From the IMG/VR virus record IMGVR_UViG_2630968639_000005: 6,244 nt of DNA, one strand, 5' to 3'. Within the stretch, counting starts at the first letter, position 1; each line of letters opens with the position of its first letter. A program made the position numbers. Below, piece after piece: positions 3,001 through 6,244 of this stretch. Source of the DNA: a virus (Duplodnaviria > Heunggongvirae > Uroviricota > Caudoviricetes).

Positions 3001-6000
3001 TCTTTTATTTAAACCATCTCTTCTGACTCCCTTCAGAGCAAAACAGGCACTGATCAGACTTCCAAATGCATTGATTCTTTCTCTAACTGACACAGTTGGT
3101 ACAACTAATTGAGGTATAACACCTGGATTTACAAATGTGGATCCAGGAACATACCTGGCATTGGTGGTTCCGGGTCCATCAGATACTTGACTGTTGAATC
3201 TGTCATAAGTCAACTCCACTGCCTCAACAATATTCTCACTAGGGATATGTTCAACTGCGACAATTTCGTTCTGCTCTCGCATCATTATCCGCTCAAATCC
3301 AGAAAAGGTTACACCGCGCTGGGTTAGATAATTGACTGACGGTTGAATAGGATAAAAAATATTATTTGCCCTGATACGGTAACGATATAATCTACCATGA
3401 AATCCAGAACTTGAATAATATTGCCTGGCTATGTTATATGTTTCAATTAAACTGGTTGTGGTCGCAATAAATGCACTATCCCTACTTCCTGCCGCACATG
3501 AGTCTCCTCTTAAATGTTGCTGTAAATTTCTGTTAAAACCATGAGATCTAAATCCATCACGAAATATTTCCTCTGGAGGGCGAGAATCCACTCTATAAAC
3601 AAAATCCGTAGCATTCGCATACCATGAGAAAGAAATGAGAAACAATATAAATATTTTCAACACAATATTTCACCTCTTACTTAAAAATAATAGCAACGCC
3701 TCCATCAAAATAAATCTAAGAAATAATTAAAAGTCAATCAGAGAGTTGCTGTCCTCCATGGTTAGCTGACATCTATTTACTCATTTAATTAACCAGAAAC
3801 ATACCACCATCACATCCCGCGCTAATTAAATAAGAAACACCATGTATTCAACAAAATATTAAAATTAATACAATCTTTATTTAACAGGAACAGTCAGAAT
3901 GTGAAAATATAATCAGAAGTGTATACTACGGACGTATGAATAAAACAAAACCCGCTCGAAGGCGGGTTCTATTAAAGTTCCTGCGCAGACTCACCTCGCG
4001 ATACAGCTTTGCGAAGCGTAGCGAAATTGAAGCAGTTTGTGCGTAAAAAATCAAGCTATTTTTTGAGCAAGTGATTCTCGCATGGGAATGTATAGCGCAT
4101 ACTCAGCAACAGCCAACCAATTAGCAATTCGCTTTTCACATGTGCTAAAACACCACTCTGGGTGTGCATCATTCAGCAATTCAGCCATTTTGCGCTTAGT
4201 CATCCCCCGTCCTTCATACCGCTGCTGGAGGATACAAATCAACCCCGGATGATCTGCCAGCACTTCACTAATCACCCGATCAATGCATAGCGCCTCGGCA
4301 TCAGTACAATGCACCAGCCAGCTCTTTTGCTTGCCATTGATAATTTCTCGCAAAAATGATTCCAGTTCAGGTTTCTCTATTCCCGCTTTTTTCATTCTAA
4401 ACAGGGCTTCATTGATGGCTGTTTTCGTCAACTTTTTTGACGCCAGCAACTGATTGAACATATTCCCTGATCTACCGCCGCCAATATACGACCAGCGCCC
4501 CCACATACGTAGTTTTCCCTGAATCCAGACACTTTCCAGCGTGTTGAGACGAAGGTGTTCTCCGCTTTTTCCTGTATGCGTTGGGTAAATCATAAATATC
4601 CCTCCTTTCTCCAGATTTCTTGTGTGCGAAAAACACCTTCTGCATGCATCAGGCGTAATTCTTCTTTGGTGTAATCGCTGTTTTTTACCCGCCCGTCGAT
4701 TAAATCATGGCACGAGCTACAAGCAATCGCTGCCTGCATATCGTGTGGCTTTATCGCTGTTCCGCACGTTCCCGCCAGTCGGTAATGCGCCAGCACAGAC
4801 GTTTCCGGATCGTGATTGCAGTAGCCAGGAATTCTGACGGTGCACATCTGCCCCCGCGCCGCTTTACGTAAGTCCACCATTACGCAAACTCCAGTAGCTG
4901 TGCGGCCACATTTTCTACTTCCTTAGGAGAGGAAAATTTTCGGAACAGAATCCAGTTCCAAAGCACATTCAGTACGGATTTATAAACCTGCTGAAACTCG
5001 GTATCGTCCATGTTCGCAAAAGCGATGGATTTCGCTCTGCGCCCGCGGTTACCGTCCGGATAAAAATGCTCGGTGTAAAATCCGGCCTCAATAGTTACCC
5101 ATTCACGGAAAGCATCAAATGACTTTAGCAATGCCGTATCGCAGGTTCTGTGTATCGCAATGGTATTCAGATATTGTTCTGCGGCATCACTCAGGGCTGG
5201 CGTATGTTCCCTGCCGACTGAGTCACACAGATAATCAACGAAACCGGACACCAGTTTTCGTTCGCGGGACGTGATCGCCCCACCGACCGGAGTCCAGTAA
5301 TCAAATCCGAGTTGCAGGAGTTTGAAAAAACGCTTGTGAAATGCGTAGTTACGAACGCGCTTAAAATCAGCGTGTATCCACTCACCTATCTTTATTTGAT
5401 GCAGGAAATCACAACTCTCCGGTGTCGCCGGGAGAAGTAATCCAGAAGATGTTTGTTTGACCAGTTGTATATGCGCCATTGCATTCTCCAATGGCGCTGT
5501 AGGTTGCCAGTTGTTCAGGCTGGCTTATAGATTATAACTCAATCCCGTATGACCTTAAAACCAATCCTTTCAATGTATTCGATAAAAGCTTCAACAGATA
5601 AAATTATATGATCTTCCGGGATTACAGTTGTGTAAATTATTTCTCCATTTTCGATACGCACCGCATAGAGTCCATTTTCACTCAAAGCTTCACGCAATTT
5701 ATCAAAACTCTTCATTAGAATCCTTCCAGGTAAATAGCGTTCCCCTTTACGGGGGCCATCCATCTTCTCCCTGCGCGCAAATCAAGCCCAAAGGATTCTA
5801 ATTAATATTTCACATGAGGCAATAACCAAGAAAACACAACAATATATAAAACACATAAATTAAGAATACAAGGTAAACTGCGCGTGATATAAAAAACAAC
5901 AATGAGAACATTATGACATTGTACATTCTGTTTAATAATATTTATTAATTAAAAACAAAATATCGAGAGGGGCAAAATCGGGTGCATTGAGGATGCCTGA

Positions 6001-6244
6001 CACATCAGAGGTGACGGGGATTTATCCCATAAGCGCTAACTTAAGGGTTGTGGTATTACGCCTGATATGATTTAACGTGCCGATGAATTACTCTCACGAT
6101 AACTGGTCAGCAATTCTGGCCCATATTGGTAAGCCCGAAGAACTGGATACTTCGGCACGTAATGCCGGGGCTCTAACCCGCCGCCGCGAAATTCGTGATG
6201 CTGCAACTCTGCTACGTCTGGGGCTGGCTTACGGCCCCGGGGGG

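Follow-up and report, generated by a model that had tools for sequence, protein, structure and literature searches.

The stretch of DNA analyzed here, called the window below, comprises 6,244 nucleotides of a Rac-type lambdoid prophage that occupies the Rac site and carries the EcPlt toxin. Its features are listed in Table 1, together with two features of the near-identical prophage of STEC308 (locus L001) that correspond to sequence beyond the window's end. Pfam and PHROG scans identified NinB-like, YbcO-like and Q-like genes, with holins and an M15 endolysin downstream of the Q-like gene; the nin/Q label that a first-pass annotation of the window had given to these genes was a fair one. Going from the insertion in the early direction of the phage, the first gene encountered is the small rem-like ORF, which had no hit in the local copy of Pfam. 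The same gene order, i.e., mok/hok, rem, irsA (DUF1367), ybcO, q, pertussis-like toxin and holins, is found in phage Rac-SA53 (KU052037.1), which is 97.9% identical to the window over positions 5500-6027 and lacks IS186. The toxin genes of Rac-SA53 (eplBA plus LT-IIa), however, are of another type and stand in another order.

The AB5 toxin operon of the window is an AT-rich island (about 30–35% GC) between the Q-like antiterminator and the holins, which is the position of stx in Stx phages. tRNA genes, as they occur in Stx phages, were not found between the Q-like gene and the toxin. At the other end of the window lies a reverse-complemented IS1 end, whose terminal repeat ends at position 430; the element has the lysis genes on one side and the terminase region on the other. 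Over its first 118 bp, this IS1 deviates from the copy in the closest relatives, which suggests either a different IS1 variant or a collapse of repeats in the assembly. The prophage is already decaying, as seen from the IS1 in the window and from the STEC308 copy, which is truncated after the terminase.

Table 1. Coordinates of features in the window and, where L001 is given, in the corresponding locus of STEC308
Feature	Coordinates	Strand	Basis or remark
IS1 end	1-430		Reverse-complemented
AB5 toxin operon	2445-3663	-	AT-rich island
B subunit, pertussis-like toxin	2445-2927	-	Near-identical to PDB 4Z9C, 267 bits
A subunit, pertussis-like toxin	2938-3663	-	Near-identical to PDB 4Z9C, 537 bits
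nin/Q-type genes	4051-5491	-	Pfam and PHROG scans
DUF1133 Q-like antiterminator	4051-4593	-	PF06576 plus PF06530/PHROG 753
YbcO nuclease-like	4590-4880	-	PF07102
DUF1367/NinB-like	4880-5491	-	PF07105/PHROG 319
rem-like small ORF, 74 aa	5539-5763	-	Rac-SA53 rem annotation; precomputed hit to PF27490 (Rem); PHROG 340
AT-rich spacer between hok cassette and rem-like ORF	5764-5979		Composition, 30% GC
Weak promoter-like site in spacer	5822 to 5795	-	TTGCCT-16-TAGAAT
38-aa very hydrophobic ORF	5810-5926	-	Inside spacer; no PHROG match
Orphaned 3' tail of hok mRNA	5980-6027	-	Transcript reconstruction and fold; homology to hokD/hokC loci
fbi (fold-back inhibitory) element	5980-5991	-	CUCAAUGCACCC; complementary to hok mRNA 5' end (tac), beyond the IS
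Small hairpin in hok tail	5992-6006	-	Fold of reconstructed transcript
3' half of target/terminal hok hairpin	6013-6027	-	Fold of reconstructed transcript
Remaining part of IS186 target GGGG-N6-CCCC	6016-6027		Empty site in STEC309 and target rule
Left copy of 10-bp target-site duplication	6018-6027		GGATTTATCC in window; GGATTTCTCC in all relatives
IS186 left end (IS4 family)	6028-6244	+	Identity to K-12 IS186A/B
IS186 left inverted repeat (IRL)	6028-6050		23 bp, CATAAGCGCTAACTTAAGGGTTG
hok toxin ORF (STEC308)	L001 12960-13115	-	PF01848, 71.8 bits; Hok/Gef annotation
sok/hok 5' leader (STEC308)	L001 13110-13282	-	Rfam RF01794, 91.5 bits (gathering score 59), full model

The window ends 217 bp into an IS186 copy, so that the far end of the element lies outside it. 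These 217 bp match the first 217 bp of both K-12 IS186A and IS186B without a mismatch, and they are also identical to IS186 at five other loci, including those of STEC308, STEC367, LR-03 and pDETEC1. The inverted repeat together with this identity confirmed position 6028 as the start of the terminal repeat, as had been read from the sequence initially, and alignment to the reference copies left the boundary where it was. The transposase ORF starts at 6083 and continues past the end of the window. In STEC308, the element is annotated as IS4-like with an IS421-family transposase.

Target site and its duplication

The target rule of IS186 is 5'-GGGG(N6/N7)CCCC-3' (Lee et al. 2016, PMC5009759), and the site in the window fits it. 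The uninterrupted site was found at the same point in two homologues: it reads GGGGATTTCTCCCC in STEC309 (locus L002, 11961-11974) and AGGGATTTCTCCCC in Rac-SA53, the latter being one mismatch away from the ideal target. In the 17,973-bp empty-site locus of STEC309, GGGGNNNNNNCCCC occurred a single time, exactly at the insertion point, whereas the number expected by chance was 0.13. The target preference proposed in the first-pass annotation is thereby supported. The sequence which it had placed directly before the IS, GGGGATTTATCC, is indeed there, but it spans 6016-6027 and not 6017-6027, i.e., its start had been set one base off.

In six near-identical relatives (STEC306, STEC307, STEC308, STEC367, GCA_036681845.1 and CP122655.1), GGATTTCTCC is present on both sides of an IS186 of 1337–1339 bp. 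In STEC308 and STEC367 (L005) the element is 1339 bp long with this sequence at either end. Both copies of the duplication were read in these two loci as well as in those of GCA_036681845.1 (L012) and CP122655.1 (L018), and in all four the element is complete and carries an IS421/IS186 transposase. The duplicated target anticipated at the other end of the IS therefore exists in the relatives, although it is not readable in the window, which stops inside the element and contains the left copy only. This left copy differs from that of the relatives at position 6024, which is A in the window and C in all relatives; the A reflects either a change after the insertion or a sequencing error. In the genome from which the window derives, the sequence past the far end of the IS would be expected to read GGATTT(C or A)TCC, then CCGCCGGGTCTC, and then the reverse-complemented hok stop codon.

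We also searched 5,426 complete E. coli genomes. By megablast, STEC306, STEC307 and STEC308 were 99.9% identical to the window over 430-6244, including the junction, and the homology of other E. coli strains ended at 6028. A junction-spanning probe matched four of the complete genomes (STEC306, STEC307, STEC308 and STEC367), whereas an empty-site probe matched 14. Thus, occupancy of this hokD-type site by IS186 is rare. GCA_036681845.1 and CP122655.1 have the same junctions as the window and also carry its additional IS1, which is absent from STEC306-308. Outside IS1, the window and its close relatives differ at 2–3 positions. Compared with CP122655.1, and leaving the interior of IS1 aside, the only differences are at 5854 and 6024; the C at 5854 is specific to the window relative to the close relatives.

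The hok mRNA and the proposed loss of its fbi element

In every relative, the gene directly beyond the IS lies on the minus strand and codes for a Hok/Gef toxin of 51 aa. It belongs to a hok/sok type I toxin-antitoxin locus that is located just past the element, outside the window, and the right end of the IS is separated from the hok stop codon by 22 bp. The gene is hokD-type, with about 91% identity to the hokD of the Qin prophage. Judging from the close relatives, the window's own genome should likewise contain hok and the distal end of the IS. Because hok lay beyond the window, its context was missed by the first-pass annotation, which assigned the insertion to the regulatory region of the nin/Q operon. 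The element is instead located in the 3' untranslated hairpin of hok. In STEC309, whose site is empty, an internal deletion (L002, about 12080-12140) has removed the 5' half of hok and the mok/sok region, and the hok locus of these related prophages has thus been damaged by two different routes.

To reconstruct the transcript as it was prior to insertion, we took the STEC308 sequence without the IS and without one copy of the duplication, and read the minus strand starting at GGGUGCUUGAGG, the conserved 5' end. The resulting mRNA is 383 nt long, with hok at nt 168-323. A stem-loop at nt 331-350, 11–30 nt past the hok stop codon, has the IS186 target motif as its core. In the predicted minimum-energy fold, nt 1-11 are paired with nt 372-383, which corresponds to the tac/fbi pairing. 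This duplex has a predicted energy of -19.7 kcal/mol; K-12 hokC pairs in the same register, at -17.1 kcal/mol. For the transcripts interrupted by the IS, the 5' end was predicted to pair only locally, with nt 20-32. The tac-fbi pairing is based on one fold and on conservation with hokC. Minimum-energy folds of RNAs of ~380 nt are weak evidence alone. According to the published tac/fbi model, the fold-back holds full-length hok mRNA in an untranslatable, Sok-resistant form up to the trimming of the 3' end (PMC9841398).

Other hokD-type loci and hokC are homologous to the window from ~5979-5980 onward, the point at which the mRNA and, on its 3' side, the hok cassette end. The composition of the DNA changes at the same place. 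The tract 5764-6027 had been described as AT-rich and promoter-like. This composition holds up to 5979, with only 26% GC at 5790-5975, but not for the last 48 bp, which have 54% GC. Since the target is the core of the hok 3' hairpin and the fbi element occupies the far end of these 48 bp, they are not promoter DNA but the 3' tail of a toxin mRNA. The annotation of the 48 bp beside the IS is corrected accordingly to that of a severed toxin mRNA tail, and the gene most directly affected by the insertion is hok.

We consider it highly probable (roughly 85%) that IS186 inserted into a sequence-specific target at the 3' hairpin of a hokD-type hok gene and separated fbi from the hok mRNA. The element transposed into the GGGG-N6-CCCC motif within the stem-loop that follows the hok stop codon, generating the 10-bp duplication. 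As a result, 1.3 kb of IS sequence separates the last ~45 nt of the mRNA, which bear fbi, from the rest of the transcript. The hok transcript may now continue into IS186 antisense sequence, and without fbi it would presumably be unable to form the stable, inert reservoir. The predicted folds suggest that fbi-dependent control of hok has most likely been lost. As the reservoir form would be lost along with fbi, the locus is probably also devoid of regulated post-segregational killing, by analogy with what was proposed for K-12 hokC/gef.

Transcription toward the rem-like and nin/Q genes

It is possible that the IS acts in a polar manner on early transcripts heading for the rem-like and Q-like genes, but we found no support for it here. 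A stronger version of this idea is that the main effect of the insertion is on the early operon of the prophage, with the element either blocking read-through into rem-nin-Q or driving transcription from an outward promoter; the late and toxin genes, which are Q-dependent, would then be affected as well. The layout of the locus is compatible with such an effect. The IS lies between the replication genes and hok on one side and the rem-like, NinB-like, ybcO and Q-like genes on the other, all on one strand, and its transposase is on the opposite strand, so that early transcription must cross 1.3 kb of antisense IS sequence. In addition, a terminator-like hairpin with a U-run is present inside IS186 on the minus strand (L001, 12384 to 12365).

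On the other hand, a consensus scan of 5500-6244 detected no minus-strand sigma-70-like site in or at the left end of IS186 that would read toward rem/nin/Q, and we found no report of outward promoters of IS186 in the literature searched. The suggestion that the element supplied an outward-reading promoter is therefore not borne out. Promoter-like sites were not enriched over 5500-6244 either, with 5 observed vs 2.2 +/- 1.7 expected from shuffled sequences. Furthermore, three genes on the opposite strand already interrupt the early operon of STEC308 upstream of hok, and that prophage has a second gene of the Q family. Finally, target specificity fully explains the position of the insertion, and IS186 occupies the same position at hok genes without nin/Q surroundings, such as hokC, hokE and those on plasmids. 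We thus regard a main effect on the early operon as unlikely. If insertion into the hok hairpin is the correct reading, any effect on rem-nin-Q would be a by-product of the 1.3 kb of foreign sequence that a decaying prophage has acquired within its early operon. With regard to the EcPlt toxin genes, which lie downstream of the Q-like antiterminator, we saw no sign that the IS dampens their induction-dependent expression.

It is extremely improbable that the junction is an assembly artefact, in which the end of a contig was joined to a repeat or collapsed onto it: the window does end in IS186 on one side and in IS1 on the other, and together with the deviating first 118 bp of IS1 this is typical of repeat-bounded contigs, but the same junction with a complete IS and both duplication copies is present in six independent assemblies, of which at least five are closed chromosomes.

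Several other features of this region were observed. The AT-rich spacer is conserved in Rac-SA53, whereas many other relatives lose homology at 5778-5804. The spacer is therefore largely a mosaic piece of DNA that varies between relatives and is separate from the hok cassette. No intrinsic terminator for hok was found within the AT-rich tract. The hydrophobic 38-aa ORF inside the spacer may simply reflect its T-rich composition. The three opposite-strand genes of STEC308 (L001, 13459-16127) code for proteins of 363, 142 and 197 aa, and their identity as a defense system could not be supported, as neither PADLOC nor Pfam gave a credible match. On one side of this three-gene module is hok, and on the other a second antiterminator, a canonical member of the Q family (PF06530, 108.7 bits). 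The STEC308 prophage thus has two Q-type proteins in addition to the unexplained inserted module.

IS186 at other hok loci

The location of IS186 next to hokC and hokE was reportedly first described by Pedersen and Gerdes in 1999. Insertion of this element into the hok 3' hairpin is a known phenomenon, and the case described here is a further instance of an ordinary event which involves no new mechanism. We read the arrangement in K-12 MG1655 directly from NC_000913.3. At hokC, the end of IS186A is 22 bp from the stop codon, the same offset as in the prophage, and the duplication is also 10 bp long (GGATCACTCC inside GGGGATCACTCCCC, with the far junction read). At hokE, IS186B is inserted the other way round; it starts at GGGGAGTAATCC, 21 bp past the stop codon. 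On the mRNA strand, the G4-N6-C4 hairpin target is GGGGAGTGATCCCC in hokC, starts with GGGGAGTAATCC in hokE and is GGGGAGAAATCCCC in the prophage. The orphaned flank that bears fbi is homologous between the K-12 cases and the window. Unlike hokC and hokE of K-12, the gene affected here is a hokD-type paralogue within a Rac-site EcPlt prophage, and its insertion is rare whereas the K-12-type hokC insertion is widespread. IS186 is also found at the same position behind the Qin-prophage hokD of LR-03 and RM10410, where the duplication is 11 bp, and behind a plasmid-borne hokD-type gene on pDETEC1.

It has been proposed that the element next to gef/hokC interferes with fbi and with the processing of the mRNA; the K-12 gef gene with the IS is nonetheless reported to be still transcribed and still under the control of its antisense RNA (PMC3562002). 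The insertion hotspots described for IS186 follow the same target rule, with the core duplicated and either orientation possible (PMC5009759), and both orientations were indeed seen at hok loci. However, those hotspots are in promoter or coding sequences, whereas the motif in the prophage is a structural element of a toxin mRNA 3' UTR. hok/sok homologues have also been noted near several hotspots of mobile-element insertion in E. coli (bioRxiv 10.1101/527788). With the prophage hokD-type locus added to the hokC and hokE cases, the hok 3' hairpin is shown to be a general target of IS186, which matters when the functionality of hok loci in genomes is judged.

To estimate how common such junctions are, we used 240-nt probes consisting of 110 nt of an IS186 end and 130 nt of the hok side, and required a coverage of 80% or more. 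IS186 ends directly adjoining the 3' region of a hok gene were found in 820 of the 5426 complete E. coli genomes in one orientation and in 939 of 5426 in the other, that is, in roughly 15–17% of genomes per orientation. A listing spread across the first-orientation set contained mostly K-12-type hokC, the remainder being hokD-type genes on plasmids and chromosomes. This frequency, and the covariation of the stem between perfect (GGGG..CCCC) and imperfect (GAGGG..CCCTC) targets, led us to a tentative and rather doubtful idea, namely that the hok 3' hairpin is a built-in landing pad for IS186 at which insertion is perhaps favored by selection beyond target preference. If true, hok toxin loci would be recurrently disarmed, whether chromosomal, prophage-borne or plasmid-borne, and irrespective of the orientation of the element.

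In the 3' UTRs of intact hokD-type loci (L009-L017), the stem pairs GGCGAGGG..CCCTCGCC, GGCGGGGG..CCCTCGCC and GGCGGGG..CCCCGTC covary. Thus, only some of the variants are perfect IS186 targets: the RNA structure is retained in these loci, whereas the quality of the target varies. The fbi sequence GGCAUCCUCAAYGCACCC is conserved across the same loci, and homology stops directly past it.
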